Below, in pieces: positions 10,624 through 40,251 of a DNA stretch of 64,000 nucleotides. How positions within the stretch are numbered: the stretch's first letter is position 1; every line of letters begins with the position of its first letter. The translations under genes were made by a program, and so were the position numbers. The notes beneath the pieces are model-generated. The model searched no databases, was not told the DNA's origin, and saw nothing but the letters and a program-made list of their open reading frames with translations. Source of the DNA: Desulfuromonadales bacterium (GTDB lineage: Bacteria > Desulfobacterota > Desulfuromonadia > Geobacterales > Pseudopelobacteraceae); the NCBI GenBank assembly GCA_013349405.1, contig DUZS01000004.1, positions 94,726 through 158,725 of the forward strand, read 5' to 3'.

Positions 10624-10648
10624 AGGGGAAAATAAGGTACTGCCTGTG

Positions 10649-10665
10649 CAAGAGTCTGATTTTAA
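10649..10665 (-). promoter_or_regulatory. IHF-like site (AATCAG-N4-TTG on the minus strand)
   Basis: The 17-mer CAAGAGTCTGATTTTAA is identical to 61316-61332. Both start 26 nt beyond the -24 box of a minus-strand sigma-54 promoter. It fits WATCAR-N4-TTR. Confidence 0.45.
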
Positions 10666-10717
10666 AGTGAAAATATGGACAGTTTAAGGTGTGGGGGTAT
10701 ATGAACCGTCGAAGAAA

Positions 10718-10752
10718 TCTGCCATGTTTAGCATAACTGTTACATATGGTGG
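10718..10752. promoter_or_regulatory. shared upstream box (candidate enhancer/UAS)
   Basis: CTGCCATGTTTAGCATAACTGTTACATATGGTGG resembles 25008-25041 and 16324-16357. It lies midway between divergent sigma-54 promoters. Confidence 0.4.
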
Positions 10753-10849
10753 CCCATTCAACAGTTACGACTGCCGTCAGTTATGCCGGGTTTCTCATAA
10801 CACCCGTACAAACAGACTCTTACAGCTAATCAGAGCGCGGTGAGTGCTC

Positions 10850-10864
10850 TGGCACTCTCGTTGC
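10850..10864 (+). promoter_or_regulatory. sigma-54 -24/-12 promoter candidate (AI-2E transporter-pssA)
   Basis: TGGCAC-TCTCG-TTGCT, with a core identical to 61517-61532. It lies inside the track ORF 10844-12151, so the true start is downstream. Confidence 0.75.
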
Positions 10865-14183: not shown

Positions 14184-14200
14184 GGCAACTACCATGCCAG
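14184..14200 (-). promoter_or_regulatory. sigma-54 -24/-12 promoter candidate
   Basis: Minus strand reads CTGGCAT-GGTAG-TTGCC. Confidence 0.7.
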
Positions 14201-14445
14201 AGATCTTTCATCCGTTATGAATGTCGTAAGCTACTTATATTGCTTATTAAATATAATTCTAACGTGTCTGGTGACGGAAAAACCGTATCACGATCCCGTC
14301 ACGCAGAATAAAAACCGCTAAATATGGCAGTTAACCTGTAATGGTACGGATTCCAATGGTGGTTGAAATCGTGCAATGTCGCACTACATACTATTTTCCC
14401 TTTATATTCAATCTGTTGCGCATTTTTAAACTGCTTGATTATCTA

Positions 14446-14461
14446 TGGCACGGTAGTTGCG
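14446..14461 (+). promoter_or_regulatory. sigma-54 -24/-12 promoter candidate
   Basis: TGGCAC-GGTAG-TTGCG. It overlaps the track ORF start at 14457, so the real start is the SD-preceded ATG at 14532. Confidence 0.75.
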
Positions 14462-14531
14462 ATTATCTGCCCGGCTGCATATGCAGCAAAGGAAACCATC
14501 TGAGCAAGAAGAACAGTACATAGGAGAGCAG

Positions 14532-14918: not shown

Positions 14919-14934
14919 CCGTTCCATTCGTATA

Positions 14935-14964
14935 AAAAAGGCCAGGGGTGGGGAACCCCTGGCG
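14935..14964 (-). terminator. intrinsic terminator of the PEP-CTERM DUF3494 gene
   Basis: Minus-strand RNA reads GCCAGGGG-UUCCCCA-CCCCUGGC followed by UUUUUU. The stem is related to the 35-nt repeated hairpin. Confidence 0.7.
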
Positions 14965-14971
14965 AGTAAAT

Positions 14972-15961
14972 CTACACGTTATTGCTGTTCTGACGCCTCT
15001 TCACGTATATTACCAAACCAAGAAGACCACTGCCTAAGAGCATCATTGTGCCCGGTTCCGGAACCGGAGCAGAGGTTCCGCCGTCACTTACACTTCCACC
15101 GCCACCGCCGCTGAGACCGTCGCTGCCGAAGTCTTTGCTGTCGAGATCGTTGCTGCTGAAGTCGGAACAGCCATTTCCGGTACCCTGAGCGCTGCTGTTG
15201 GAGATGCGATTGTCTGTCATTGTCACTGCACCGGTGAGGGCAACGGCTCTCCCGCAGAGAATTTGTGCCGTCGGATCGAGGCCGACACTAGCAAGAGCAA
15301 GAATATTGCCCTCAAAAGTAGAACCTGAACCGAGAGTTGCCGAACTACCTACCCGCCAGTACACACCGTTCGTCGAATTTCCGTTGATGACAGACACCCT
15401 TGAAGCGCTTGCGGTTGTCAGGGTACTCCCGATATTGAATACGAAGTCTGCATCGGAAACGTTCTGGAAATCGAGAACCAGATTTCCGTTCAACTGTGCC
15501 GAAGAATTAAAATTATAGACTCCGGCGGTAAGTGTCGAGTGACCCGCAGAGCCGAGGATAAAACCGGTGTAATCTGCTGTCATTGCCATGCCGGCAAGCA
15601 TGTTGTATGCAGTTCTTGCATCGGCCAGAGCTGTTTGTGCAACCCCGTCGTTTGTATGAATTGTGCCGCCGCTCACGGCTCCATCAGGATAAAAGCCGGT
15701 GATCGCACTCCCGGGAGTCACACCCAGATTCCCGAAAATTGTTGTGGTTGCGTTCGGCGCGCTGTGACCGTTGGTAACGGTAGCGGCACCTAAAGCCGCA
15801 AAACTCTGTGCCGAACCGAGTATCGGTGTGGCTTCTGCAATAGTCGGGGAAAAGGCTGTCAACAGCGGCACGACAGCGAAGAGTGACAGGAACGTACATT
15901 TTACTTTCGCTGCAGTGACATAAGTAAATATGCTGCATGGTTTTTTAGATTTTTTTTTCAT
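14972..15961 (-). CDS. DUF3494 (ice-binding-like) protein with a PEP-CTERM sorting signal
   Basis: LGSAQSFAALGAATVTN...GVYWRVGSSATLGSGSTFEGNILAL. The C-terminus is VPEPGTMMLLGSGLLGLVIYVKRRQ (PEP motif, TM, basic residues). GGAGA lies upstream of ATG 15961. Confidence 0.85.
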   Translation of the reverse strand: MKKKSKKPCSIFTYVTAAKVKCTFLSLFAVVPLLTAFSPTIAEATPILGSAQSFAALGAATVTNGHSAPNATTTIFGNLGVTPGSAITGFYPDGAVSGGTIHTNDGVAQTALADARTAYNMLAGMAMTADYTGFILGSAGHSTLTAGVYNFNSSAQLNGNLVLDFQNVSDADFVFNIGSTLTTASASRVSVINGNSTNGVYWRVGSSATLGSGSTFEGNILALASVGLDPTAQILCGRAVALTGAVTMTDNRISNSSAQGTGNGCSDFSSNDLDSKDFGSDGLSGGGGGSVSDGGTSAPVPEPGTMMLLGSGLLGLVIYVKRRQNSNNV

Positions 15962-16150
15962 TTTGATCTCCATTTTTTTGTGTGTCTGATTGAACGCTGA
16001 TTTTCCGGATCGGGCTGTGATCGTGTTCGCTGATGAAATATTTCAGTAGACAGAACTGAATACAAATACTCCTGACTTACAGGTTCTCCTTTCTGGGTGA
16101 ATGGATTTTGTTGCGATGTTGCATCTGGTGCGGTGCATTCCTGCAGAGGT

Positions 16151-16193
16151 AAAAAATCACCAGGGGCCCATGGGAGGGAAAGCAGCCCCTGGT
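16151..16193 (-). ncRNA. leader hairpin plus U-tract (repeat copy A): attenuator or short sigma-54-dependent RNA candidate
   Basis: Minus-strand RNA reads ACCAGGGGC-UGCUUUCCCUCCCAUGG-GCCCCUGGU followed by GAUUUUUU. It begins about 20 nt after the -12 box at 16213. Confidence 0.5.
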
Positions 16194-16212
16194 CTGCCGC
16201 TGATATATACTT

Positions 16213-16229
16213 ATCAACAAGCGTGCCAG
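16213..16229 (-). promoter_or_regulatory. sigma-54 -24/-12 promoter candidate (PEP-CTERM DUF3494 gene)
   Basis: Minus strand reads CTGGCAC-GCTTG-TTGAT (the -12 box is GA rather than GC). 24/25 identical to 24895-24911 and its flank. Confidence 0.6.
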
Positions 16230-16323
16230 AGACTGCTGGAACCGGTAGTAAGTGTAACTATCAGAATTTACGAGATAAAATATAATGGCATGAAATTCAT
16301 GGAAGAATAATCATTTTTAATAT

Positions 16324-16357
16324 CTGTCACATATGATTTTTCTGTTACATGCGGCGG
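16324..16357. promoter_or_regulatory. shared upstream box (candidate enhancer/UAS)
   Basis: CTGTCACATATGATTTTTCTGTTACATGCGGCGG lies about 100 bp from the minus promoter and about 100-130 bp from the plus promoter. Confidence 0.4.
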
Positions 16358-16453
16358 CTGTCGCTGGCAGAATTTTCTCCATCCAGCCCGACTATCAGCT
16401 ACTTTCCCCTGCAAATACAGCCAATTGAACACGTAGTATCTTCTGCACTTCAC

Positions 16454-16469
16454 TGGCACATTTGTTGCG
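16454..16469 (+). promoter_or_regulatory. sigma-54 -24/-12 promoter candidate (PAP2 operon)
   Basis: TGGCAC-ATTTG-TTGCG. Confidence 0.75.
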
Positions 16470-24029: not shown

Positions 24030-24141
24030 GTCGTTACTCTACGAATGGCTGCATTAGCCTATTTCATCCCATAACCATATAAGAATCATTTCGATCATTG
24101 TCATAACGTGTTCCTCTTTCAGGATAGTACGGTTTGTGCTG

Positions 24142-24186
24142 TTTTAAAAGACCAGGGGCCCATGGGAGGGGAAGCAGCCCCTGGTC
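24142..24186 (-). terminator. repeat hairpin copy C acting as the terminator of the pal-like gene
   Basis: Minus-strand RNA reads GACCAGGGGC-UGCUUCCCCUCCCAUGG-GCCCCUGGUC followed by UUUU. It starts about 10 nt after the stop. Confidence 0.7.
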
Positions 24187-24194
24187 AGCCGCCA

Positions 24195-24797
24195 TCAGGG
24201 TGTTGCAATAATAAATTCAGCGCGACGATTATTAGCCCACGCCGTCTCATCATTTCCGCCCGCAGACGGTTTTTCTTTCCCGTAACTGATTGTTGACAGG
24301 CGGTCACTGTCGACACCCATGGCTACCAGATAGTGCTGTGCGGCTATTGCGCGACGTTCACCGAGCGCAAGGTTGTATTCTGCCGAACCTCTCTCGTCGC
24401 AGTTACCTTCAATCCGGATATTGACGGTGGATTTATCGGTAAGCATTTCGGCATTTTTGGCCAATGTAGCGCGGGCAGATTCGGATAGCCCGGCGGAATC
24501 AAAATTGAAATAAATTTTATTCAAAGCTGCCTGCAGTTTCCTGTTTGCAGCTGTCTGCTGATCAAGTTGCGACGCAAATGAAGAGGACGACGGAGAGACT
24601 TCGCGTGTGTCGACCGGTGTAGATGGCGTCACAGCTGATGCTGACCGGTCCGTTCCGGGCGACTCGGTCTGTCTGACGACAGGCGCGGGAGAAATCCCCT
24701 CGTCCTTTTTAACGACATCAGGTTTTGCGCAACCGGAGGATACGAGGAGAGAAACGAGCAACAGGGACACAACATGATTCGGCACGATTTTCAGCAT
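24195..24797 (-). CDS. peptidoglycan-associated lipoprotein (OmpA-family C-terminal domain, Pal-like)
   Basis: Lipobox LVSSGC. The OmpA_C motif is read as NIRIEGNCDERGSAEYNLALGERRA...NRRAEF. AAGGAG lies upstream of ATG 24797. Confidence 0.85.
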   Translation of the reverse strand: MLKIVPNHVVSLLLVSLLVSSGCAKPDVVKKDEGISPAPVVRQTESPGTDRSASAVTPSTPVDTREVSPSSSSFASQLDQQTAANRKLQAALNKIYFNFDSAGLSESARATLAKNAEMLTDKSTVNIRIEGNCDERGSAEYNLALGERRAIAAQHYLVAMGVDSDRLSTISYGKEKPSAGGNDETAWANNRRAEFIIATP

Positions 24798-24830
24798 GGT
24801 AGAGACTCCTTGACATACGATTGTCTGATT

Positions 24831-24873
24831 TAAAAAAGACCAGGGGCCCATGGGAGGGGAAGCAGCCCCTGGT
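24831..24873 (-). ncRNA. leader hairpin plus U-tract (repeat copy B): attenuator or short sigma-54-dependent RNA candidate
   Basis: Minus-strand RNA reads ACCAGGGGC-UGCUUCCCCUCCCAUGG-GCCCCUGGU followed by CUUUUUU. 34/35 identical to copy A. It lies about 20 nt after the -12 box and about 40 nt before the pal ATG. Confidence 0.5.
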
Positions 24874-24894
24874 AAGTGAAGCTGCTATATACTT

Positions 24895-24911
24895 ATCAAC
24901 AAACGTGCCAG
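24895..24911 (-). promoter_or_regulatory. sigma-54 -24/-12 promoter candidate (pal-like gene)
   Basis: Minus strand reads CTGGCAC-GTTTG-TTGAT. Confidence 0.6.
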
Positions 24912-24937
24912 AGTTATCTCATACCATGTAAAAAACG

Positions 24938-24951
24938 TAATTATCTGATTC
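24938..24951 (-). promoter_or_regulatory. IHF-like site
   Basis: Minus strand reads AATCAG-ATAA-TTA (WATCAR-N4-TTR), at the same offset from the -24 box as 10649-10665. Confidence 0.4.
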
Positions 24952-25007
24952 TGAAAGACAAAATATAATGGCAGTGAGATCGGTGGAGTAATAACCGTTA
25001 ACTTTAC

Positions 25008-25041
25008 CTGTCACTTCTAGCATAACTGTCATATATAGCGG
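25008..25041. promoter_or_regulatory. shared upstream box (candidate enhancer/UAS)
   Basis: CTGTCACTTCTAGCATAACTGTCATATATAGCGG, midway between divergent promoters. Confidence 0.4.
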
Positions 25042-25136
25042 ATAATATTGACGGTTTCCCGCCCGGCCTGAACAGATACTTCCAATTTTAACCATGCATT
25101 CAGATAGTTGCAGCTTTCATAGCAGTCAATCGCCTC

Positions 25137-25152
25137 TGGCACATTAGTTGCC
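25137..25152 (+). promoter_or_regulatory. sigma-54 -24/-12 promoter candidate (NRAMP-cheB-like operon)
   Basis: TGGCAC-ATTAG-TTGCC, identical to the core at 50782-50797. Confidence 0.75.
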
Positions 25153-25207
25153 TTTACGCACGTATCTGCAGATGATTAACACTGACGTTTAACAGCGAGG
25201 TTGCACC

Positions 25208-26999: not shown

Positions 27000-27587
27000 A
27001 TGAAATCGGCAGAAACTGCAAAAAAATTCCCGGTTGTGTGTGTCGGCGGATCGGCCGGCGGTCTCGATGCCTATATCCGGTTACTGCAACATCTGCCGGC
27101 TGATATGGGGGTTGCCATCGTCATCGTCAATCATCTGAGAACCGTGGCGACCATGCTTCACAAAATTCTTCCCCGATATACGGAGATGCCGGTTGAACTG
27201 ATTACGGACTCCCTGCTCATTGAGCCCAACCATGTATTCATTATTCCGGAAAAGCGGGATTTGCATGTACGTGAGGGTGAATTTCGTCTGGAGCCGATAT
27301 CGAAGCCGAGAGGGTGGCCGGATGTGATTACCGTATTCATGCGCTCATTGACCGAAAACTGGGATGGCACGCTGATTGCGGTAATAGTTTCCGGATTTGA
27401 TGGTGATGGTGCAAATGCTCTGTGCGGTATTAAAGAAGTTGGCGGCATAACAATCGCGCAAAGGCCGGACACCGCCGCTCAGCCGGATATGCCTGAAAGC
27501 GCAATTGATAGCGGCTGTATCGATTTCATTCTCTCACCTAAGGACATTGCCAAAAAAATAGTCGAGATTGTCAACTTAGTTTACTGA
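27000..27587 (+). CDS. stand-alone CheB-type methylesterase domain protein (no receiver domain)
   Basis: VVCVGGSAGGLDAYIRLLQHLP, IVIVNHL and GFDGDGANAL match the Ser/His/Asp context of CheB. Paralogous to the N-terminus of 37552-40251. Confidence 0.75.
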   Translation: MKSAETAKKFPVVCVGGSAGGLDAYIRLLQHLPADMGVAIVIVNHLRTVATMLHKILPRYTEMPVELITDSLLIEPNHVFIIPEKRDLHVREGEFRLEPISKPRGWPDVITVFMRSLTENWDGTLIAVIVSGFDGDGANALCGIKEVGGITIAQRPDTAAQPDMPESAIDSGCIDFILSPKDIAKKIVEIVNLVY

Positions 27588-27608
27588 AACGGTGGCATTG
27601 GTGGATAT

Positions 27609-28139
27609 ATGAACGTGAGAATAGTAACTTTTGGAGCAGTTGTCGCGCTGTTCGGCCTGTTGTTGCCGGTCATAGCGGCAATTTATGTGATTGATAACCC
27701 GTCAGATAAAATTAAAAACCCGGCATCAACGATGAATAACCCGGCAACTCAGATCAAAAATCCGGCGTCTAACATATACAACCCTGCCGATCGGATGGAA
27801 AATCCAGATCCGCTTTCTCCGGTTACCCCCGCTATTCCCAGGCCACCGGAAGCAAAAAATATTCCGGCAGTACCGGCTGTAAAAACCGGTAAAAGACCGC
27901 TGATTCGGGCTACGGTCGCAGTTCCTCACAAAGAATACCATTTCAAAACGGTTGCTGCGTATATTTTCGCCGCTAAAAAAGCCTTCAGCCGCGACAACTA
28001 CAGTGAATTTCTTGCCATTACAGATGATGCTTTGAGGCGGATAGCTGCCGGTACACTCAAAGCTTCAAACAAATCCAGGCAGACATTACTGAAGTACAAA
28101 ATATTCGGCCAGAGCTTATTAGACAGAACCGGGGAGTAA
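27609..28139 (+). CDS. membrane-anchored protein with six xNPxxxx heptad repeats
   Basis: N-terminal TM. Repeats DNPSDKI KNPASTM NNPATQI KNPASNI YNPADRM ENPDPLS. Confidence 0.6.
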   Translation: MNVRIVTFGAVVALFGLLLPVIAAIYVIDNPSDKIKNPASTMNNPATQIKNPASNIYNPADRMENPDPLSPVTPAIPRPPEAKNIPAVPAVKTGKRPLIRATVAVPHKEYHFKTVAAYIFAAKKAFSRDNYSEFLAITDDALRRIAAGTLKASNKSRQTLLKYKIFGQSLLDRTGE

Positions 28140-28150
28140 AAAATAATCAA

Positions 28151-29263
28151 TCACGTTATGCCGATGCAATTCCTGAGCGGAATGCTTACGCTGAACCTGC
28201 TCCCTATACCAAACTCACTTTCAACCCGGATGGTGCCGCCATGGAGTTCCACCAACTGCCGTATCAGGGGCAGGCAGAGGCCGGAGCCTTCGTTTTTCAG
28301 TGTATACTCCGATTCCAGAAGCGTGAAGGCTTTGAAGAGGTTCGGGAGGACCTCTTCCCTGATCCCCGTGCCCATATCCGCAATGGTAATTTTCAGCAGA
28401 TCTCCGTCCCGCACAGATTTCACGTCCACCGTTCCGTTTGCCGGGGAGAATCTGATGGCATTGGCGAGCAGGCTGAAAAATATCTGCTTGAGCATCTCAA
28501 AGTCAGCCACGATGCGCTGGTTGGCTTCCGGGGCAAGATCCGGATGGATGGCAACACCTCTTTCCTGCATCTTTTCTCTGAGCATTGCCATTGCAGCATC
28601 AAGTGCCTCCCGAATTGAACAAACGCCAAGCTCAAGCGCAATGTTCCCCGACGCCAACGTGGTACCGTTGTGGTGGACGATTTCATGTATCTGCGGCACG
28701 GTTTCTTTTTGCCTTGAGATGTTGAGCAGGGAGAGGCGGCATTCCTGCCCCGAAGAGCTGATAGCAGCTCCGATCTCTACGGTGAGTGGAAGTCCCGCGT
28801 TGTCCAGGATTACCGCTTCGCATGTTTCATCGGTTCGGGTGGTAAAGATCCTTTCGAGAAAGCGAGTGAAAGTGGTGCGACCTTCTTCCGCAAGTAATTC
28901 TCTGAAACAACGACCAGGCAGGAGCGACCGTTCAATCCGGATAAGGTTGGCAGCCGCCAGATTCACGGCGAGTATGGTACCGTCCCGGTTAAGATTAAAG
29001 TAACCCACCAGGCCATGTTCGTAGAGGTCGGTATACCTTTCCAAATCCATCTCAACTTCATAACGGGCATCACGCAACTCCGTATTCTGGATTTCCAACT
29101 CGATCTGATGAACCTCAAGATCATGGACAAGGCGCTCTGTCGCCTCGCCACTCCCGACCACACGCTCATCAGGTGTGTGCAGACGCATCTGCTCTTCCGC
29201 GATGCGGTGCAACTCATCAGAATCTGTCAAATGATTTCTGGTATGGATGATTTCCATTGGCAA
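28151..29263 (-). CDS. PAS plus HATPase_c sensor-kinase-like protein lacking a recognisable H-box
   Basis: Coiled coil LEVHQIELEIQNTELRDARYEVE, a PAS domain, then N/G1/G2 boxes (LLANAIRFSP, DMGTGI, GSGLCLPL). No SHELRTP-like phosphoacceptor motif was seen. Confidence 0.7.
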   Translation of the reverse strand: MPMEIIHTRNHLTDSDELHRIAEEQMRLHTPDERVVGSGEATERLVHDLEVHQIELEIQNTELRDARYEVEMDLERYTDLYEHGLVGYFNLNRDGTILAVNLAAANLIRIERSLLPGRCFRELLAEEGRTTFTRFLERIFTTRTDETCEAVILDNAGLPLTVEIGAAISSSGQECRLSLLNISRQKETVPQIHEIVHHNGTTLASGNIALELGVCSIREALDAAMAMLREKMQERGVAIHPDLAPEANQRIVADFEMLKQIFFSLLANAIRFSPANGTVDVKSVRDGDLLKITIADMGTGIREEVLPNLFKAFTLLESEYTLKNEGSGLCLPLIRQLVELHGGTIRVESEFGIGSRFSVSIPLRNCIGIT

Positions 29264-29473
29264 TTCTCACTTCCCGCGAATTGTTAGGAGGTATGGTGCA
29301 GTCACTTGTTTTCATCCGAATCTGTTTTTTTAAAATCAGAACCAACAGTCTCTTCATGAGCTCTTTTATTTCCAGGCGATCCTGTTTCCGGTTTTCCGAA
29401 AATCTCATCAAAGGAGCTCCTGATTTTATGAAACGCTCCGTGTGGCTTGTCTTTTGTGTAAAATTCCATGACG

Positions 29474-29854
29474 TTACCCCCGTAGAAAATGACTTTTCAG
29501 GCTCTTATACCAGGAATTTGATTTTGCATGGCGTGGGTTATGAGTAGGCAGCAGTGGTGAAAACCCTGTGTCAAAGCTCAAACGCTGAATATCCTGCTGC
29601 AGTCGCTCCGGCAGGTTGACCAGTTTCGCCTCAACGCCCCTGAATTTGGCGCACTGCATCCAGGCGTGGAGCAGTTGCAGGCCGCTCCTGTCTGCTGAAA
29701 TTACTCTCCCGCAATCAATTTTAATGTTTTTTTCTCCGCCGGATCCGAGTTTCTGCAATGAAGCCGCCAACGTATTGACGATATTGTGCGTTACGCCGGA
29801 ATGGGTCAAGTCACCGTGCAGATATGCAACTGTTCCGTTTGTATATACTTCCAT
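29474..29854 (-). CDS. STAS-domain protein (anti-sigma-antagonist/MlaB-like)
   Basis: GGAGG lies 5 nt upstream of ATG 29854. VAYLHGDLTHSGV...IKIDCGRVISADRSGLQLLHAWMQCAKFRGVEAKLVNLPERL. Confidence 0.65.
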   Translation of the reverse strand: MEVYTNGTVAYLHGDLTHSGVTHNIVNTLAASLQKLGSGGEKNIKIDCGRVISADRSGLQLLHAWMQCAKFRGVEAKLVNLPERLQQDIQRLSFDTGFSPLLPTHNPRHAKSNSWYKSLKSHFLRG

Positions 29855-29921
29855 GTAGTCCTCCTGGTATGGGTAAAGGTGAGAGAAAACTTCGCTGCTT
29901 TTGATCTGATGGCAAGTATAA

Positions 29922-29938
29922 AGCAACAAGGATGCCAT
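29922..29938 (-). promoter_or_regulatory. sigma-54 -24/-12 promoter candidate (STAS / kinase-like genes)
   Basis: Minus strand reads ATGGCAT-CCTTG-TTGCT, about 70 nt upstream of ATG 29854. Confidence 0.7.
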
Positions 29939-30104
29939 ACCGCAAACAGGGTACATAATGGCGTAACATACTGACTATAAAGGTTAAAGTATGATTCATA
30001 GAATCGGGCTGCGAAAAAACTGCCAAAAATAACTGTTATAGATGACATAGTCGTCAAATGTGGTGGAGTTTGTACCGGAGTTGCCCCTGAGCAGAAAACT
30101 GCGC

Positions 30105-31240: not shown

Positions 31241-31330
31241 CGTACTGATACGTGGCAACCTGGCTGTCTCTGAGAGATCCTGTAGGCTTTCCGTCCCATC
31301 CTCGCGGATGGTTTAGTAGTATCGTGTACC
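31241..31330 (-). ncRNA. GEMM-I (c-di-GMP-I class) riboswitch aptamer with the A20, cGAMP-type (GEMM-Ib) signature
   Basis: Minus-strand RNA reads GGUACACGAUACUACUAAACCAUCCGCGAGGAUGGGACGGAAAGCCUACAGGAUCUCUCAGAGACAGCCAGGUUGCCACGUAUCAGUACG. It has the conserved AAACC-stem-GNRA(GCGA)-stem-GGGACG.AAAGCC core, a swapped G21-C46 pair (C...G), and a closing stem GUAC/GAUAC with GUAUC/GUAC. Confidence 0.75.
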
Positions 31331-31475: not shown

Positions 31476-31492
31476 AGCAACGAACGTGCCAG
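31476..31492 (-). promoter_or_regulatory. sigma-54 -24/-12 promoter candidate (riboswitch leader plus DUF3494 gene)
   Basis: Minus strand reads CTGGCAC-GTTCG-TTGCT. The leader to ATG 31087 is about 375 nt. Confidence 0.75.
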
Positions 31493-32403: not shown

Positions 32404-32530
32404 TTGGATATTGCTGCGGCAACTAGCTGTTTTTACGATGATTGATTAAAACGGGAGTGCTGCTGTGAAGGGTAACTGTCAGTGGAATCCGTCAGGGGTA
32501 ACATTACTGTTAAATGTGGAGGATGGTTGG

Positions 32531-32632
32531 GAAGGGGGAATATACCCCCCTCCCAGCCTCCCCCCGCTGGGGGGAGGAGCTAATTAAGTTCCCTCACCCA
32601 GCGGGGGAGGGGTAGGGAGGGGGAGGCGGGAA
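32531..32632. repeat. G-run/C-run palindromic intergenic element (REP-like), copy 1
   Basis: CCTCCCCCCGCTGGGGGGAGG and CCCTCACCCAGCGGGGGAGGGGTAGGGAGGGGGAGG. Same family flavour as 46264-46365 and 52460-52502. Confidence 0.6.
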
Positions 32633-32664
32633 AGTGAGAAAGTAAAATCAGGGGGGATTTGCCG

Positions 32665-34215
32665 TTACACCCTCACAATCCCGTACTTTCTCATCCGGGC
32701 GCGCAGGGTGCTGGCGTTGAGACCAAGAATAATTGCAGCGCCGTTTCTTCCCTCGATACGCCAGCCGGTTTTTTTGAGCACCTGCATGATGTGGTCATGT
32801 TCCAGTTCCACAAGGGCTTTAATCTCCTGCCCGGTCGATTCCTCAATTTTCGGGAAAGACTCAAAACGGTCCAATACCTGGAGAGATGTTCCCTGGGTAA
32901 TGATGACGGCCCGTTCGATGACGCTTTCCAGCTCCCGCACGTTGCCCGGCCAGCTGTACCCCTGAAGGGAATTGAGTGTTTCTTTTGTGACGGTCTCGAT
33001 CCTCTTGCCGATCTTTTTGTTGAACTTGGCGACAAAATGATTGACGAGCAGCGGAATGTCTTCACTGCGCTGCCGGAGTGGCGGCATGGTGATGGGGAAC
33101 ACGTTGAGGCGGTAGTAGAGGTCTTCCCGGAAGGTGCCGTTCTTCACTTCATCGGCCAGGTTCCTGTTGGTGGCAGCGATGATGCGGACATCGACCTTTA
33201 TGGTGCGTGGACTGCCGAGGCGCTCAAACTCGCCGTCCTGAATGACCCTCAGCAGCTTGCATTGGAGTTCCAGCGGCATCTCGCCGATTTCGTCGAGGAA
33301 GATTGTACCGCCGTCAGCCAGCTCGAACCGTCCGATCTGCCGGGCATCAGAGCCGGTGAACGCGCCCCGCTCCCGGCCGAACAGCTCGCTTTCCACCAGG
33401 GTCGATGGCAATGTCGTGCAGTTGACGGTAATCAGAGGGCGTCCTTTGCGACTGCTGCTGCTGTGGATAGCACGAGCCACCACCCCCTTGCCGGTGCCGG
33501 TTTCACCGAGGAGTAGCACCGTTGCGTTCATGGGGGCCACCTGTTCGACCTGAAGAAATACCCGTGTCAGGACGGAACTCTGGCCAATAATCTCGCCGAA
33601 GTTGTATTCCCGGTCAACCTCCTGCTGCAGGTAGATGTTCTCTTCCTGGAGCCGGTCTTTCAAGGTTTTTATTTCTGCATAAGTCCCCTGAAGTGACCCT
33701 TCCGCCTTCTTCCGTTCCTCAATTTCCTGGGTGAGCTGGACATTCGCCGTCAGCAGGTCACTTGTCCGTTCCTGGACCGTCTCTTCAAGCTCCTTGTTAT
33801 AATTAACGAGTTTCTTATAGAGCAGCCGCACTTCGAGCATGTTGCGGATGCGGGTTTTCACTTCCACCAGATCAAACGGTTTGCTGATAAAATCCTTCGC
33901 GCCGACTTCCAGTGCCCGCAGTTTATGACCCGGTTGGGCGGTGATGACCAGAACCGGAAAGTGACTGCCGCTTTCAACACTCTTCAACTTTTCCATAACC
34001 TGGAAACCGTCCATGACCGGCATCTGCAGATCGAGCAGGATCAGGTCGTAGCGGTTTTTGTCATGCAACCCGCAGACCGTCTGTGGATCCATTGTTGAGG
34101 TGACGCAGGTATAGCCTGCTTCCACCAGTACCTGCTCAAGCAGTGTGATATTGGATTCCTGATCATCAACGATCAGGATACCGGCGCTCATTATTTCCGA
34201 CTCGGTGAGTATCAT
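32665..34215 (-). CDS. sigma-54-dependent response regulator (NtrC family: REC, coiled coil, AAA+ and Fis-type HTH)
   Basis: DLILLDLQMPVMDG, Walker A GETGTGKG, ERGAFTGS (GAFTGA variant), and a C-terminal HTH AAIILGLNASTLRARMRKYGI. The ATG overlaps the kinase stop by 4 nt. Confidence 0.9.
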   Translation of the reverse strand: MILTESEIMSAGILIVDDQESNITLLEQVLVEAGYTCVTSTMDPQTVCGLHDKNRYDLILLDLQMPVMDGFQVMEKLKSVESGSHFPVLVITAQPGHKLRALEVGAKDFISKPFDLVEVKTRIRNMLEVRLLYKKLVNYNKELEETVQERTSDLLTANVQLTQEIEERKKAEGSLQGTYAEIKTLKDRLQEENIYLQQEVDREYNFGEIIGQSSVLTRVFLQVEQVAPMNATVLLLGETGTGKGVVARAIHSSSSRKGRPLITVNCTTLPSTLVESELFGRERGAFTGSDARQIGRFELADGGTIFLDEIGEMPLELQCKLLRVIQDGEFERLGSPRTIKVDVRIIAATNRNLADEVKNGTFREDLYYRLNVFPITMPPLRQRSEDIPLLVNHFVAKFNKKIGKRIETVTKETLNSLQGYSWPGNVRELESVIERAVIITQGTSLQVLDRFESFPKIEESTGQEIKALVELEHDHIMQVLKKTGWRIEGRNGAAIILGLNASTLRARMRKYGIVRV

Positions 34216-37200
34216 ACGTGTCCTTTTGTTTTTGCGTAGTTAAGTGCGATGTTCAGTGTATCCATAAATTTATCGACGTTGATCGGTTTGGTGAGGTAGC
34301 GAAAGAACCCGGCTTTCAGTCCCATTTCGATATCGCGCGGCATGGCATTGGCACTGAGCGCCACCACCGGTATGTGGGCGGTGGTCTGATCAACCGCCAG
34401 GATTTTCATGGCGTCAATGCCGCTGATACCGGGCAGATTGATGTCCATCAGGATGACATCCGGCAGAGAGGCGCGCGCCAGCTCAATACCGCTTTTGCCG
34501 TTCCGGGCCGTCAGCAGGCGGATATCCGGTCGGCGGGCAATAATATCCTCAACCAGCATCATATTGGCCGGATTGTCCTCGACATAGAGGAGCGTCTGCG
34601 TTGGTGCGTCACCTTCTTTGTGCCCCATGACCGCTGTCATCGTTCCGGATGAATAGGCGGGAGCGTGCGGTTTTGCCATCAGGCTCATCTCTATCCAGAA
34701 GACACTCCCCACGCCAACGGTACTTTCCACGCCGATGACACCCCCCATCAGCTCAACGAGGCGTTTGGACACGACCAGTCCGATACCGGTTCCCTGTTCG
34801 CCGCTCGATTCCTGTCCAAGACGATTAAACGGCTGGAAAAGCTGGGCAAGCTGTTTTGGAGTGAGTCCTGCCCCGGTATCCCGAACGTTGATCCGAACCG
34901 ACTCCGTGCCGTTCACAACGCTCTCCACCAGCACCGTTCCGCCCGCTCTGTTATATTTGATCGCGTTGGAAAGAAGATTGATGAGCACCTGTTTGACCCG
35001 TGTTCGATCCGCCTCGATAAAGCAGGGGAGAGCGAATTCTTGAAAGGTCACGCTGATGGCATGTTTTATCGCCTCTGGTTCGATCATGGTCTCACATTCG
35101 TGCATGACTTCAGGCAGGGAAACCGGTTCCAGCGACATGGAAAGTTTGCCTGACTCTATCAAGGCGAGGTCGAGGATCTCGTTGATTAACTCGAGCAGGT
35201 ACCAGCCGGCCTTGAGAATCTGATCGATGCTGCGCTTCTGGTTTGGGGTCGGCTGAGGTGAACCGGATTCCACGAGTTGGGCAAAGCCGAGGATCGCACT
35301 GAGCGGCGTGCGCAGCTCATGGCTCATACTGGAGAGGAAATCCGATTTTGCCAGGTTGGCTTTTTCCGCGACAAGCGTGGCACGCTCCAGTTCGATGTTT
35401 TTATCCTGCAGTACCTGTTCGAGCCGGACACGTTCGGCTTCAACCAGCTTGCGAGCGGTGTTGTCGGTGCCGATCAGCAGGTATCCGATGATAGCATTAT
35501 GGACATCGCGCAGAGCCGTTACCGACACGACCGCCGGAAAACGGCTGCCATCCTTGCGGATATAGGTCAGTTCGTAAATATCCTCAATGCTGCGCGAAGC
35601 CTTGAACACCAGAGCCTCAAAACCGGGCGCGATGGCGGTGCCGAGTTCGGAACTCAAGGTCTCGGCACGCAAAATAACTTCCTGCGGATCGGAAATTTCG
35701 GCCGGGGTGATCTTGTTCATCACTTCTGCGGCCGTGTAACCGAGCATCCGCTCTGCGCCGACATTAAAGATCTGGATAACCCCCTTGGCGTCGGTGGCGA
35801 TACTGGAGAAGTTGGCGCTGTTAAAAATCGCACTTTGCAGCGCCCCCGCTTTGACCAGGGCCTCTTCCGCCAGCTTGCGAGCCGATATATCGCGCAAAAT
35901 TCCGGTGAAGTAGCGCTGCCCTCCCATCCACATCTCGCTGGCTGCAAGCTCCAACGGGAAATAGCTGCCGTCTTTACGTTTCCCCATAACTTCGCGACCG
36001 TGGCCACTGGCACGAGCCGCTTCACTCGCGCTGTAATATTCGAGAGAACCGTCGCGTTGATCCTGATCGAGCTCAGGAATCAGCAGACTGAAGTTCTGAC
36101 CTTCGAGTTCTTTAGCCGTATAGCCGAACATCAGTTCAGCCGCAGGATTAACCGTTTCAACGAGAGCGCCGTGTGCATGAATGGTGATAATTCCATCCAC
36201 CACGGTATTGAGAATCGCCCGCATCAGCGCGGCACTGTCACGCATCGATTGCTGCACCAGGTATTCCTCGGTGACATCACGGAACACCAGCACGGCGCCG
36301 ATCACCTGATCTTCGCGGTTGCGGATCGGGGAGCAGCTGTCAGCAATATCATATTCGCTGCCATCGCGGGCAATCAACACGGTGTGGTTGGCCAGGCCCT
36401 GGGACGTGCCATGGAGAATGGCAGCCATTATCGGGATAGGTGCGGGGAGTCGGGTCTCTTTATTGACAATGTGAAAGATCTCGTCTACCAGGTGCCCGGA
36501 AGCTTCAGCTCCACTCCAGCCGGTGAGCTGTTCGGCAACCGGATTCATGCGGGTTATCCGCGCTGTGTCATCGGTTGCTATTACCGCATCGCCGATGGAG
36601 TTGAGCGTTACGGCAAGCTGCTCTTTGCTGTCCCGCAGGACGGTCTCAAGCTGCATGGCGAGCTCTCGTGCCTCGCATAACGATTCGTTCTGCATCTCCA
36701 GTTCGACCTGGGATGTTTCCAGTTCCTGCTGGGAGCGTTGCAAATCAGTGTTCTGCGCCTCCAGTTCGTACTGGGAAATCTCCAGCTGAGCTAAAAGTTT
36801 CCGCGTTTTTTCATCGTTTTCCTGTAATGACACGTTGGCCTGTGCCAGTTGTGTATTTGAATCTTTCTGAATCTCAAGCAGATGCTCTGTTTCAAGATGA
36901 ACGATATCTTTAAGCCGCTGCTTGGATTCTTTATAGATCAGATAGGCGAACGCAAGTGCCAGCAGTAGCGTCATCAGACTGGCGAAAGCAATGGCGGCAA
37001 AAAGCATACGCAGTTTAGATTGAAATTCCGCTTCGCTTTGCAGCAGCACTCCCTGCTTTTTGCTGAAGCTGTCGATCTCGGCGCGAATCGAATCCATAAG
37101 CGGCTTACCCTGCATGCCGCGTATATTTACTAATGGGGCCGCAAGGTTGCCGGCGCGACGCAACTCGATATTTTTAGCGAAATATGCCAGTTTCGTATCA

Positions 37201-37535
37201 ATCAATGGCACCAGTGCATCCAGATTTTTATCGGCACCACTCATCCGGGGCGTTTGGCGTAATTGTGCCAACCGGACTTTGACCGTATCGCGTACCGCCA
37301 GGTACGGCTGCAGAAAGCTTTCCTCTCCGGTTAACAGATAGCCCCGCAGGCCGGTCTCGGCATCCAGTAATTCGGATTGCATCTCGCCTGTGAGGCTTAT
37401 TACTGTGGAGATCTGCCTGCGTGCTTCGGCAGCAGTTGCGATCTGGCGGAAAGAGTGGAAGGTTAGCGACACAACCAGCACAACCATAAGCGCCAGTCCG
37501 ACAAGTAAGCAGATAATTTTAGTACTGTATTTCAT
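34212..37535 (-). CDS. hybrid sensor histidine kinase (CHASE3, TM, coiled coil, 3 PAS, HisKA, HATPase and REC)
   Basis: CHASE3 motif ETGLRGYLLTGEESFLQPY, H-box SHELRTPLSAILGF, GTGIGL, REC DVILMDINLPGISG. Start set at ATG 37535, after the upstream stop at 37552. Confidence 0.9.
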   Translation of the reverse strand: MKYSTKIICLLVGLALMVVLVVSLTFHSFRQIATAAEARRQISTVISLTGEMQSELLDAETGLRGYLLTGEESFLQPYLAVRDTVKVRLAQLRQTPRMSGADKNLDALVPLIDTKLAYFAKNIELRRAGNLAAPLVNIRGMQGKPLMDSIRAEIDSFSKKQGVLLQSEAEFQSKLRMLFAAIAFASLMTLLLALAFAYLIYKESKQRLKDIVHLETEHLLEIQKDSNTQLAQANVSLQENDEKTRKLLAQLEISQYELEAQNTDLQRSQQELETSQVELEMQNESLCEARELAMQLETVLRDSKEQLAVTLNSIGDAVIATDDTARITRMNPVAEQLTGWSGAEASGHLVDEIFHIVNKETRLPAPIPIMAAILHGTSQGLANHTVLIARDGSEYDIADSCSPIRNREDQVIGAVLVFRDVTEEYLVQQSMRDSAALMRAILNTVVDGIITIHAHGALVETVNPAAELMFGYTAKELEGQNFSLLIPELDQDQRDGSLEYYSASEAARASGHGREVMGKRKDGSYFPLELAASEMWMGGQRYFTGILRDISARKLAEEALVKAGALQSAIFNSANFSSIATDAKGVIQIFNVGAERMLGYTAAEVMNKITPAEISDPQEVILRAETLSSELGTAIAPGFEALVFKASRSIEDIYELTYIRKDGSRFPAVVSVTALRDVHNAIIGYLLIGTDNTARKLVEAERVRLEQVLQDKNIELERATLVAEKANLAKSDFLSSMSHELRTPLSAILGFAQLVESGSPQPTPNQKRSIDQILKAGWYLLELINEILDLALIESGKLSMSLEPVSLPEVMHECETMIEPEAIKHAISVTFQEFALPCFIEADRTRVKQVLINLLSNAIKYNRAGGTVLVESVVNGTESVRINVRDTGAGLTPKQLAQLFQPFNRLGQESSGEQGTGIGLVVSKRLVELMGGVIGVESTVGVGSVFWIEMSLMAKPHAPAYSSGTMTAVMGHKEGDAPTQTLLYVEDNPANMMLVEDIIARRPDIRLLTARNGKSGIELARASLPDVILMDINLPGISGIDAMKILAVDQTTAHIPVVALSANAMPRDIEMGLKAGFFRYLTKPINVDKFMDTLNIALNYAKTKGHV

Positions 37536-37551
37536 GGTGGAGGTTCCTTGG

Positions 37552-40251
37552 TCACGCATTCGCTTCAAGCATCGCCTGCAGCCGTACGTTCTCCGCCCGC
37601 AGTTCCGCTTCCAGAGTCTTGGTTGCGGTGATGTTGGCAAAGGTAATTACCACACCGGAAATGACGTCATCCATGGTGCGGTATGGCATGATGCGTACCG
37701 AAAACCAGCGATTGTCGGTGGTGGTGATCTGTTTTTCCGAAAAGATCAGCGTACGGTGTACCTGACGCGAGTCCTCGATAATGTCGGGATAGTTGAGGTC
37801 GTTGACGATTTCGGAAAGAGGTCGGCCGATATCAACGGTACGCAGCTTGAATATGGTATCAGTCCCGCTGGTGAAGCGCCGGATATGGAGATCATTGTCC
37901 AGAAATACGGTCACGATTTCGGTACTGTTGAGCAGGTTGCGCATATCGTTGTTGACCCGCGCAAGCTCGTCCATTTTCGACTGCTGCTCGGCGTTCACCG
38001 TCTGTAGCTCTTCATTCAGTGACTGCATCTCCTCCCTCGAAGTGGTCAGCTCTTCGTTGGTGGATTGCAGCTCTTCGTTGGTTGACTGTAGTTCCTCATT
38101 GGTAGATTTAAGCTCCTCCTGGGAGGATTGCATCTCTTCGCGGTTGGCCTGGAGCGTTTCCCGGAACTGACGTTGTTCCTGTTCCAGTTCGAGCACCCGG
38201 GCGCTGCTGATTGAAGGGGGGCCGTCATGATTCGACGGAGCATGAACCTGGATGGGCGATGACACGTCGCGGAAGATGATCATGACCATCCCGCGCAGCG
38301 CTTCCGGTTCTTCGACGGACTGAACGGTGATGTCAACCGATTGTGCTGCATCACCTTTGCCCACCGTGAGACCCTTGGCCATGACGGTCTCTTTGAGTCG
38401 GACCGCTCTCTGGAACGCACTGCCAAGATCAGAACGAAGCCCTTCACGAGCCATTGCAAAAATATTCCAGTTGGCTTTTCCGGCGGCAGGTTCCAGGTAT
38501 TTGCCGGTTTTGCCACTGATATAGAGAATATCACCGCTTTCATTGGTCAGTACGGCGGGTGGTGAAAACTGCTGCAGAAGCAGATTGTCGGCCAGTGACT
38601 GCAGGTTGACAGCCGGTTTTACCATCGGCAACTCCTTTGAGGTTCCGTGAAAAGCGGGAACAAACGAGGCGGGAAATGCAAGCGGCTCTAACTGTATGAC
38701 GGACTCCCGCCGCTGGAAGAAGCGCGACTTGACGTTCAATGGTGCAAAAAGGTGCGTATAGGTGCTGATGGTTTCGGCACTCCCCAGAAACAGGATGCCG
38801 CCCGGTGCAAGGCTGTAATGGAAGAGCGGCATGAGCTTTTTCTGCAGTTCCGGTGTCAGATAGATGAGCAGGTTACGGCAGATGAGGATATTCAGCCGTG
38901 TAAATGGGGGATCCATGATGATGTTCTGTGTGGCAAAGGTCACGACATCGCGGATCTCCTTGCTGACCCGGTAGCCGTTTTCCTCCTTGATAAAGAACCG
39001 TTTCAGCTGTTCGTCGGCAACATTCTCGCTGATGGTGAGCGGATAGAACCCATGACGGGCCTTGTCAATCGAATCGTTATCCAGATCGGTGGCAAAAATC
39101 TGCAGCGAAAAATTTTCAGACGGTCTGACCTGTTCCAGCGCCATCTTGAAGGCGATGGCCAGCGAGTAGGGTTCCTCTCCGCTTGAACAGCCGGCCGACC
39201 ATGCCCGCAGAATCCCGCCTGACGGGTGCGCGGCCAACAGCGCCGGTATGCCTTCCTTGATCAGATATTCCCATGACTCGGGGTCGCGAAAAAAGCTCGT
39301 CACACCAATCAACAGCTCTTTGAAGAGAATTTCCACCTCCTGGGGGTTCTCCCGCAGGTAGCGGACATACGCCCCGATCCGGTCAATCTGGTGGACACTC
39401 ATGCGCCGCTCAATGCGGCGCTGCACAGTGTTTTTCTTGTACAATGAGAAGTCACTGCCGGTCTTGGCCCGCAGGAGGATGAGGACCTTCTCCAGGGCGC
39501 TTTGATCTTTCTCCTCCAGCGGTGGTTCACTCCTGGTAATGACCAGGGTGTGGTGGAGATAGGCGATGATCTTGCCCGGCAGCTCCTCGGCCGGGGCGAC
39601 AATATCTGCTACCCCGGCATTAATGGCGCTTTTCGGCATGCTGTCGAATTTTGCTGAAGCCGGCTCCTGTGCCAGGGTCACGCCACCATGCTCTTTAATC
39701 GCCGTGAGCCCCAGCGTGCCGTCCGAACCCATACCGGAGAGGACAACTCCAATGGCACCATCCGTGCGATCATCGGCTAAAGAGTGGAAGAAAAAATCGA
39801 TCGGAAGCCGGAGACCACGCGCTGCCGCCGGTTCAAACAGGTGCAGCACGCCGTGCAGGAGGGACATGTCCCTGTTGGGCGGGATGACATACACGCAGTC
39901 CGGTTGAACCTTCATCTGATCTATGACCTGAAAAACCTTCATCCCGGTAACCCGCTGGAGCAGCTCAGGCATGATCCCCTTGTGGGTTGGATCCAGGTGC
40001 TGAATGATGACAAAAGCGCAGCCGCAATTTTCCGTCACATGCCGCAGAAACTGTTCCAGCGCCTCAAGTCCACCGGCAGAGGCACCGATGCCGACGATGG
40101 GGAAGGGGGCTTCCGGAATGCTTTCACAGGAAGCCGGTTCGTGGGCATTTCCACGTCTGGTCATTTTAGTTCGCACTTTCATACGGTTACCATAACAGTA
40201 TTCCGGCGAATGCACTAATTTATTGTGTGGAGCCCCTCCCGCGCGGTTCAT
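37552..40251 (-). CDS. CheB methylesterase/CheR methyltransferase fusion with a coiled coil and C-terminal PAS
   Basis: VGIGASAGGLEALEQFL, VIIQHLDP, the CheR SAM region ILRAWSAGCSSGEEPYSLA, STNEELQ x3, then PAS. Confidence 0.85.
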   Translation of the reverse strand: MNRAGGAPHNKLVHSPEYCYGNRMKVRTKMTRRGNAHEPASCESIPEAPFPIVGIGASAGGLEALEQFLRHVTENCGCAFVIIQHLDPTHKGIMPELLQRVTGMKVFQVIDQMKVQPDCVYVIPPNRDMSLLHGVLHLFEPAAARGLRLPIDFFFHSLADDRTDGAIGVVLSGMGSDGTLGLTAIKEHGGVTLAQEPASAKFDSMPKSAINAGVADIVAPAEELPGKIIAYLHHTLVITRSEPPLEEKDQSALEKVLILLRAKTGSDFSLYKKNTVQRRIERRMSVHQIDRIGAYVRYLRENPQEVEILFKELLIGVTSFFRDPESWEYLIKEGIPALLAAHPSGGILRAWSAGCSSGEEPYSLAIAFKMALEQVRPSENFSLQIFATDLDNDSIDKARHGFYPLTISENVADEQLKRFFIKEENGYRVSKEIRDVVTFATQNIIMDPPFTRLNILICRNLLIYLTPELQKKLMPLFHYSLAPGGILFLGSAETISTYTHLFAPLNVKSRFFQRRESVIQLEPLAFPASFVPAFHGTSKELPMVKPAVNLQSLADNLLLQQFSPPAVLTNESGDILYISGKTGKYLEPAAGKANWNIFAMAREGLRSDLGSAFQRAVRLKETVMAKGLTVGKGDAAQSVDITVQSVEEPEALRGMVMIIFRDVSSPIQVHAPSNHDGPPSISSARVLELEQEQRQFRETLQANREEMQSSQEELKSTNEELQSTNEELQSTNEELTTSREEMQSLNEELQTVNAEQQSKMDELARVNNDMRNLLNSTEIVTVFLDNDLHIRRFTSGTDTIFKLRTVDIGRPLSEIVNDLNYPDIIEDSRQVHRTLIFSEKQITTTDNRWFSVRIMPYRTMDDVISGVVITFANITATKTLEAELRAENVRLQAMLEANA

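Follow-up and report, generated by a model that had tools for sequence, protein, structure and literature searches.

The stretch of DNA analysed here, referred to as the window, comprises 64,000 nucleotides (nt) of contig DUZS01000004.1 (assembly GCA_013349405.1) from a Desulfuromonadales bacterium and carries two closely similar modules on its minus strand: one (24831-24912) precedes a pal-like lipoprotein gene and the other (16151-16230) precedes a gene for a DUF3494 protein with a PEP-CTERM anchor. Read along the minus strand, each module consists of a sigma-54-type -24/-12 box, a hairpin that begins 20-22 nt after the TTGA of the box, and a run of U. The 35-nt hairpin, hereafter hairpin X, follows the pattern ACCAGGGGCTGCTT(Y)CCCTCCCATGGGCCCCTGGT, which has exactly three matches in the window, all on the minus strand (16159-16193, 24151-24185 and 24839-24873), and none in shuffled sequence. 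The promoter pattern TGGCACG(Y)TTGTTGATAAGTATATA matches twice (16204-16228 and 24886-24910), with none expected. These matches bear out an earlier note on this DNA, which had described both modules from the sequence, had reported that the hairpin is reused at the 3' end of pal and that a shorter relative lies at the end of the PEP-CTERM gene, and had named the two downstream genes; their identities are supported by domain matches, Pal reaching 134.8 bits against a TIGR02802 cut-off of 125. The copy after pal lacks a promoter and appears to act as the 3' end of that gene. The short relative (14941-14963), to which a covariance model derived from the long copies gives 30.8 bits (E about 1e-5), is the putative terminator of the DUF3494 gene (Table 1).

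Table 1. Features of the two modules and their immediate surroundings in the window (SD, Shine-Dalgarno sequence)
Feature	Position	Strand	Basis or score
Sigma-54-type promoter, pal module, TCTGGCACGTTTGTTGATAAGTATATA (-24 TGGCAC; -12 TTGA instead of TTGC)	24886..24912	-	sequence
Predicted start region and single-stranded 5' tail (G)CAGCUUCACUU, pal module	24874..24885	-	inferred
Hairpin X, pal module: 10-bp stem ACCAGGGGCU/GGCCCCUGGU, 15-nt loop GCUUCCCCUCCCAUG	24839..24873	-	covariance model, 75.3 bits
U6 run, pal module, 1 base past the stem	24832..24837	-	
pal-like OmpA-domain lipoprotein gene; SD AAGGAG; ATG 41 nt past the stem	24195..24797	-	TIGR02802
Promoter-less copy of hairpin X with U4, 9 nt past the pal stop codon	24146..24185	-	35/35 identical to 24839-24873
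Sigma-54-type promoter, DUF3494 module, TCTGGCACGCTTGTTGATAAGTATATA	16204..16230	-	sequence
Variant 5' tail UCAGCGGCAG, DUF3494 module	16194..16203	-	repeat comparison
Hairpin X with loop variant GCUUUCCCUCCCAUG, DUF3494 module; identical to the copy in L079	16159..16193	-	
U6 run, DUF3494 module	16151..16156	-	
Further leader of about 180 nt ahead of the DUF3494 gene; homologous to the leader in L075	15974..16150	-	
DUF3494/Ice_binding protein gene with PEP-CTERM anchor	14972..15961	-	domain matches
Short relative of hairpin X, GCCAGGGGUUCCCCACCCCUGGC at 14941-14963 (9-bp stem, loop UCCCC), with U6	14934..14963	-	z = -4.3
Sigma-54 box TGGCACATTAGTTGC of the NRAMP-like gene, divergent from the pal-module box and about 240 bp away from it	25137..25151	+	
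Divergent partner sigma-54 box, PAP2 gene	16454..16468	+	
Shared upstream boxes ..ATGACAG..N13..GTGACAG.., pal module; presumed enhancer-binding-protein site for both divergent promoters	25001..25040	-	sequence comparison only
Corresponding upstream boxes, DUF3494 module, ATGTAACAG..N13..GTGACAG	16321..16350	-	

The predicted folds of the long copies in the window have ten stem pairs and a loop of 15 nt (-19 to -20 kcal/mol), and their z-scores against shuffled sequences are unremarkable because the sequences are short and GC-rich. The stem is followed by GAUUUUUU in one module and by CUUUUUU in the other. Transcription of the pal module would start at about 24883-24886, a position placed by the usual spacing between sigma-54 promoters and their start sites. 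No significant fold was found in the further leader of the DUF3494 module (15974-16150). The description of the arrangement as a canonical intrinsic terminator holds for the GC-rich stem followed by a U-run but not for the loop, which at 14-16 nt lies outside the typical 3-8 nt; a terminator scan for loops of 3-8 nt ranked the short relative first and did not call the long hairpin. The hairpin also gives rise to spurious open reading frames (ORFs) of 43 amino acids (aa; 24064-24195, minus strand) and 69 aa (16101-16310, plus strand), both called in the public assembly (L001), and an in-frame ATG within it (24797-24851, minus strand) would wrongly lengthen Pal by 18 residues. Several other interpretations were rejected: a leader peptide or N-terminal extension starting at the hairpin AUG, with unconserved frames and lengths (MGPW or MGPWSF followed by a stop, 23 aa, fused to pal in two); the 69-aa ORF on the opposite strand, which is closed by stops in the other copies; a pseudoknot between loop and tail, for which there is no conserved partner; and an integron attC-like cassette consisting of pal flanked by hairpin X, which lacks a GTTRRRY core and whose 3' copy is lineage-specific.

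Related loci were found through homologues of the Pal protein, whose close clade comprises P0001-P0007 and P0010; homologues beyond this clade are of a different Pal type and lie at other loci. Promoter, hairpin and U-run recur together in three other Desulfuromonadales assemblies (L075:2843-2926, L079:3892-3973 and L092:325-405), which brings the promoter-linked copies to five in four genomes, with pal downstream in three cases and DUF3494 in two. The L079 locus (Pal 70% identical) reads CTCTGGCATGTTTGTTGATATATGTATATGAGC-TTCACTT-ACCAGGGGCTGCTTTCCCTCCCATGGGCCCCTGGT-CTTTTT, with the pal start codon 27 nt later, and L092 (Pal 77% identical) shares this layout, with a GGGGG/CCCCC stem. At the L075 locus (Pal 76% identical), the module is followed by a leader homologous to window positions 16150-15975, then by the DUF3494 gene and, 27 nt on, by pal. 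The two genes that bear modules in the window are thus apparently neighbours in one unit in relatives. L076 and L077 are without the module, though their pal genes are 89-91% identical in nucleotides to that of L075; in both, a TTGC-type box and a leader of 60 nt precede DUF3494, and a long hairpin unrelated to X separates DUF3494 from pal. This unrelated hairpin (GUUGCUAAAGCCC..GGGUUUUAGCAAC; L076:3920-3955 and L077:2100-2140; region z = -4.2) is situated about 45 nt ahead of the pal start. The hairpin X copy after pal is absent from L075, L076, L077, L079 and L092 and is specific to the window lineage. The module probably predates the split from L079, was duplicated in the lineage of the window and was lost in one sub-lineage.

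Beyond the close clade, exact scans for the hairpin core gave no match in GTDB representative genomes or JGI metagenomes, but their patterns were too strict: L092 is itself a JGI contig, and its stem variant is missed by both exact patterns. By way of the NRAMP neighbour (72 loci), relatives were found to have divergent sigma-54 pairs but neither pal nor the hairpin beside the NRAMP gene, and distant Pal homologues (P0011, P0019 and P0028) and the closest DUF3494 homologues (P0122-P0124) are found at other loci or behind TTGC boxes with long leaders that lack the hairpin. In other assemblies (L087:2770-3000, L088:2770-3000 and L090:2790-3000), the leaders of DUF3494 homologues extend about 230 nt behind TTGC-type sigma-54 boxes; in each, the G-rich box GGAGAGGGKGGUG precedes a very short ORF (6-8 codons), and Rfam gave no match. 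Downstream of pal, a conserved hydrophobic small ORF of 40-42 aa (MS.IGM..IWIW....F..WSRW...) is present at L076:4786-4908, L077:2822-2950, L079:4653-4781 and L092:1090-1218. In the window only 16 codons of it remain (24054-24104, minus strand), directly behind the lineage-specific hairpin copy, and the break in synteny at this point adjoins a convergent GGDEF gene.

A covariance model built from the hairpin copies was scanned over about 205 kb, consisting of the window and 22 Desulfuromonadales loci, and returned the known copies and the short relative but no further ones. The search thus gave no sign of the generic repetitive extragenic palindrome (REP) that the earlier note had named as an alternative. 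REPs and bacterial interspersed mosaic elements are recognised by many scattered copies in both orientations, regardless of promoters, whereas hairpin X has six full copies in the scanned sequence; all copies are in sense orientation and five of the six stand at the same offset from the same promoter variant. Spread among these genomes as a REP-like palindrome, a miniature inverted-repeat transposable element or a mobile promoter cassette is very improbable. It would account for three near-identical copies inside 9 kb, for a lineage-specific copy at the synteny break after pal and for the difference between close relatives, of which L075 has the element and L076 and L077 do not. However, the sequences upstream of the five promoter-linked copies are homologous but diverged (48-63%), which indicates vertical descent, neither target-site duplications nor a nearby transposase were found, and the collection scans yielded no exact match, albeit with strict patterns.

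Four-fold degenerate sites of pal differ from the window at 52% in L079, 40% in L075 and 32% in L092. Compared with L079, the pal module of the window is 48% identical over 100 nt upstream, 86% over the box (-27..-9) and 67% over -8..+3; 5' tail, hairpin and U-run then agree at 47 of 48 positions (98%), loop included, and identity is 38% in the downstream untranslated region (UTR). The TCTGGCAYGYTTGTTGATA of the promoter is invariant in all five promoter-linked copies from the four genomes, each of which also has five to seven U after the stem, while the downstream sequence is otherwise 23-51% identical. The tail AGCUUCACUUA is identical in four of these five (the pal module of the window, L075, L079 and L092), and none of the six full copies departs from the loop core CUUYCCCUCCCAU. 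Across copies, the stem measures 9-11 bp and the loop 14-16 nt (about -19 to -26 kcal/mol), and the U-run starts 0-2 nt past the stem. The stem base, CCAGGGG/CCCCUGG, does not vary at all. The stem top is altered on both arms with pairing kept in two lineages: L092 has an added G-C pair (GGGG-C..G-CCCC to GGGGG..CCCCC), and L075 has C-G/U.G swapped for U.G/G-C. Stem pairs were counted from individual folds, as MAFFT alignments mis-register the G-runs.

The internal U.G of the L075 stem pairs in sense-strand RNA only, and this strand specificity speaks against a palindromic operator at +12..+46 in the DNA, at which a dimeric repressor of sigma-54 promoters would bind. Such an operator would agree with the inverted repeat, which is perfect over 9 bp and keeps a constant distance downstream of the promoter, and with conservation of the sequence itself and not just of its pairing. 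Its half-sites, however, would lie about 26 bp apart from centre to centre around a conserved and asymmetric spacer, and neither the conserved U-run nor the promoter-less copy at the 3' end of pal would make sense, so that a function of this kind is scarcely probable. A plain terminator, for its part, requires neither a fixed loop nor a fixed 5' tail. The constraint on the module exceeds the needs of termination and differs from them in kind, which indicates sequence-specific recognition of the unpaired parts. The module appears to be a selected RNA element, real and conserved well beyond neutral expectation, rather than an ordinary terminator or a scattered repeat.

Distinctly unlikely on the same evidence is a plain stable hairpin that protects the 5' or 3' ends of mRNAs or insulates them without any sequence-specific partner and that owes its uniformity to gene conversion and common descent. 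Pal is indeed flanked by the hairpin on both sides in the window, the loop-less derivative apparently works as a 3' terminator, and copying within the genome appears evident from a 7-nt 5' flank, GCGGCWG, common to the copy at 16159 and the copy after pal. Gene conversion, however, cannot yield the near-identity with L079 between genomes whose pal genes have diverged to such an extent, and neither protection nor termination needs a fixed 15-nt loop or an 11-nt unpaired 5' tail. A 5' stabiliser is normally placed at the very 5' end of an RNA, whereas about 11 nt are unpaired at the 5' end here.

Between the hairpin and pal, as between the hairpin and the DUF3494 gene, there is no sigma-70-like promoter; both genes therefore need read-through, and termination would have to be partial or regulated. 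Regulation could be exerted by a purely cis-acting, factor-controlled attenuator, in which most sigma-54 transcripts would end at the hairpin and U-run and a protein or RNA binding to the conserved loop and tail modulates termination, translation or stability and thereby provides a second input to pal and DUF3494, the short RNA being a by-product. This explanation is on the unlikely side, though it has several observations to recommend it: the module always stands between promoter and gene without any other promoter, a DUF3494 paralogue in the surrounding island of sigma-54 promoters has a c-di-GMP-I riboswitch leader behind its sigma-54 box, the long DUF3494 leaders of relatives make control at the level of the leader a theme, and the conserved loop could be a protein-binding site no less than a seed for base-pairing. 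A sigma-54 promoter is known to be paired with a terminator in the leader in the nasF system of Klebsiella, with its regulator NasR. Against an attenuator, no alternative (antiterminator) fold is conserved, no recognisable gene for an RNA-binding antiterminator was seen beside the modules, a promoter-less copy of the hairpin is in use after pal, and one and the same module serves two unrelated genes with very different distances to the SD. As regards a riboswitch or classical attenuator, no known aptamer was found in Rfam and no alternative fold was predicted.

The specific antiterminator suggested in the earlier note, in which AGCAGC or GCAG upstream pairs with GCUGC in the hairpin, making the module a riboregulated attenuator, is hardly credible. 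The pairing can be drawn in both copies of the window but is contradicted by the relatives, since L079 has GAGC for AGCAGC and the L075 hairpin is without GCUGC. It would open at most 3 of the 10 stem pairs and is absent from minimum-free-energy and centroid folds, and GCAG near +1 is common at island sigma-54 boxes that have no hairpin. The proposal that the loop pairs in cis with the downstream SD fared no better: only about 4 bp (CUCC:GGAG) can form, and the SD is 20 to about 190 nt away.

The reading favoured here, with a confidence somewhat short of even, is that of a leaky promoter-proximal terminator behind a sigma-54 promoter, which would release an RNA of about 50-55 nt whose C-rich loop, and perhaps tail, contacts a partner in trans, while read-through would give the structural mRNAs. 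The module would then form a separate, small transcription unit that also makes up the leader of the downstream gene. An enhancer-dependent sigma-54 promoter, with the TTGA variant at -12 and an activator site shared with the divergent promoter, would start an RNA whose 5' tail, AGCUUCACUUA, is unpaired over about 11 nt and leads into a GC stem of 9-11 bp displaying the C-rich loop of 14-16 nt and ending in U5-7. RNA polymerase would stop at the U-run in a fraction of rounds, the terminator being leaky because of its large loop, and the remaining transcripts would read through into the pal or DUF3494/PEP-CTERM mRNA. The occurrence of the hairpin or its loop-less derivative at gene 3' ends (24146-24185 and 14934-14963) implies that it is able to serve as a terminator. 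Both the short RNA and the same hairpin on the mRNAs would be recognised by a trans partner, as is implied by the extreme sequence-specific constraint on loop and tail; the likeliest partners would be G-rich, SD-like sites (GGGAGGG) in other mRNAs, in the style of small RNAs (sRNAs) with anti-SD C-rich loops. At the level of sequence, the marks of a trans-acting sRNA are present: a promoter box, a hairpin with a U-run, a 5' tail invariant in four of five copies and an invariant loop core. Sigma-54 dependence, start site, partial termination, the short RNA and trans action are all predictions from these marks. The suggestion of a sigma-54-dependent sRNA, an attenuator or both, made before relatives were compared, seems the stronger for the conservation of loop, 5' tail and U-run across genomes.

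A number of observations weigh against the short trans-acting RNA. The shared GCGGCWG flank means that identity of copies within the window is not independent evidence, and covariation support is thin, as stem variation amounts to two events only and stem base and loop never vary. The module is present in only four genomes of one narrow clade, and its absence from the close relatives L076 and L077 shows it to be dispensable. With a loop outside the usual range of terminators, the hairpin may terminate hardly at all, and the U-run might have a different role, for example Hfq binding on the mRNA. Scans for targets of the loop and tail in the window, covering 63 putative translation-initiation regions and complementary-site patterns, did not exceed what shuffled controls gave. 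At 40645-40655, a sequence resembling the tail has no sigma-54 box and was set aside as coincidental. A bolder version of the favoured reading is possible but doubtful: the module would be the founding member of a class of minimal Desulfuromonadales sRNAs of about 50-55 nt that are made by a sigma-54 promoter and their own leaky terminator and use the loop CUUYCCCUCCCAU, possibly with the 5' tail, as seed, and one enhancer-binding protein would induce envelope and stress genes (pal, PEP-CTERM ice-binding-like proteins) together with a trans-acting riboregulator from the same promoter.

The pattern TGGCAC-N5-TTGC, with at most one mismatch, gives 20 boxes in the window against 6.0 +/- 2.3 expected, and almost every box of this island is followed by an SD and a start codon 40-90 nt on. 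The genes served are of envelope and stress types: BON/OsmY, PAP2, DUF3943, Usp, P-type ATPase, NRAMP-like, STAS and HATPase proteins, and three DUF3494 paralogues. The module promoters fit the sigma-54 consensus in TGGCAC and in spacing, and the -12 element is TTGA in all five modules, the C of the GC doublet being replaced by A. TTGC is found at about 15 other island boxes; among the boxes of the island, only those of the two modules have TTGA, and no others are followed by the hairpin. This link between a fixed TTGA and the hairpin suggests that promoter and leader have adapted to each other. Five divergent pairs of sigma-54 boxes, about 240 bp apart (10608-10864, 14185-14460, 16214-16468, 24896-25151 and 61275-61531), have internal boxes in common (TGTAACAG..GTGACAG, ATTATATTT and AATCAGA) and look like a single activator regulon with bidirectional use of enhancers. 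The shared upstream boxes are located about 95-110 bp upstream of the module promoters, as at other promoters of the island. The island also contains a gene for an NtrC-family activator (32665-34215), which together with a CHASE3/PAS kinase gene occupies 32665-37640; the activator is a generic member of its family and not specifically PrsR (346 bits against a PrsR cut-off of 502.6).

Similar divergent sigma-54 pairs occur in the relatives L004 and L007. Other sigma-54 leaders of the island have short palindromes at about +5..+30, namely GCTGCATATGCAGC, ATCTGCAGAT and TTTGCAG..CTGCAAA (14461-14490, plus strand; 25152-25180, plus strand; 10575-10607, minus strand). Beside the pal module, at 27000-29956, lie genes for a stand-alone CheB-type methylesterase, a HATPase_c kinase and a STAS-domain protein, which resemble a partner-switching signalling set; a CheB-like gene adjoins pal in L079 as well. 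The c-di-GMP-I riboswitch of the island (31251-31327, minus strand; 39.7 bits) is situated about 160 nt past its sigma-54 box (31477-31491, minus strand) and ahead of a DUF3494 paralogue (31105-30206). Its aptamer core AUGGGACGGAAAG (31287-31299) is complementary to the hairpin loop at 12 of 13 positions, as against only 9 of 11 for the family consensus, and the complementarity is probably due to chance. A role for the loop in binding GGGACGnAAAG, the conserved core of c-di-GMP-I riboswitches, and so in linking sigma-54 signalling to c-di-GMP-controlled genes, would be a very long shot. Just past the activator gene (32505-32665, minus strand), a C-rich and then G-rich stretch (CCUCCCCCUCCCUACCCCUCCCCC ... 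GGGGGGAGGCUGGGAGGGGGG; -64 kcal/mol, z = -4.1) holds an exact 9-nt complement of the loop, UGGGAGGGG, buried in its own stem. Elsewhere in the window, a stop-free frame of at least 2872 codons (1-8619, minus strand) runs off the left end and indicates a giant protein, and an open frame of at least 628 codons (62113-63999, plus strand) runs off the right end. Within the large ORFs 40685-42751 and 42864-44459, the region 41013-44055 (plus strand) consists of units of about 324 nt repeated in tandem (62-82% identical), probably repeated extracellular domains.

The module appears to be an undescribed element and could plausibly be a new small RNA or leader element of a clade that is narrow and uncultured; the general kind, an sRNA or leader terminator with an anti-SD-like loop, is already known. 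If the short RNA is real, it would represent a new RNA family, absent from Rfam, in a phylum with very few known riboregulators. The favoured reading, if true, would describe a compact promoter with dual output, one sigma-54 activation giving both a regulatory RNA and a structural mRNA. Among known systems, the cuckoo sRNAs of Alphaproteobacteria (CcsR1-4, alpha-r14; RF02791) have C-rich anti-SD loops (PMC4615179). Points of likeness to the module are the size of the hairpins (24-50 nt), the large loops (9-27 nt) with a conserved C-rich, anti-SD-like motif, the association with stress, the presence of more than one copy in a genome and, as predicted for the module, transcription together with an adjacent gene. 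They are unlike the module in the motif itself (CCUCCUCCC as against CUUYCCCUCCCAU), in having two to four hairpins instead of one, in stems that are variable rather than conserved, in RpoHI/HII instead of sigma-54 promoters, in a position downstream of a DUF1127 gene rather than in a 5' leader, and in phylum. Searches of Rfam, including a permissive threshold, gave no family match for hairpin X; the best hit, CcsR1, had 12.6 bits (E = 4.6), against a gathering score of 65.3 for RF02791.

RepG of Helicobacter pylori, RsaE/RoxS of Firmicutes and sX13 of Xanthomonas use loops rich in C or C/U to base-pair with G-rich or SD sequences, and the seed of RepG is the loop of its terminator hairpin. 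The C-rich regions of RoxS are described in PMC8216469. All of these are unrelated to the module in sequence, longer and multi-hairpin, have sigma-70-type promoters and are not gene leaders, and the likeness to the module is a predicted one. The nasF system of Klebsiella is comparable in its enhancer-dependent promoter, its factor-independent leader terminator and a downstream gene that needs read-through, but in the present case neither an ANTAR-type motif of two hexaloops nor an antiterminator fold nor a candidate antiterminator protein was found. Other sRNAs are derived from 5' UTRs by premature termination. In Myxococcus, Pxr is a sigma-54-dependent sRNA. Dv_sRNA2 of D. vulgaris is another from the Deltaproteobacteria (PMC3333781). 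These two share with the module the prospect of a small RNA under an enhancer-binding protein and sigma-54 in the same broad bacterial group, but they are stand-alone genes rather than leaders and have no similarity to it in sequence or structure.

The cis-regulatory site of PEP-CTERM genes, an activator motif and a sigma-54 motif upstream of the genes, was reported by Haft et al. 2006 (PMC1569441), without mention of a hairpin. Common to both systems are single-gene PEP-CTERM units whose long upstream regions contain a -24/-12 motif of sigma-54 type together with an upstream site for an activator. They differ in that the published site includes no transcribed hairpin, that the activator encoded here is a generic one of the NtrC family, and that the present module would also drive pal, which is not a PEP-CTERM gene. 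The module may constitute an additional layer on the known sigma-54 control of PEP-CTERM and envelope genes.

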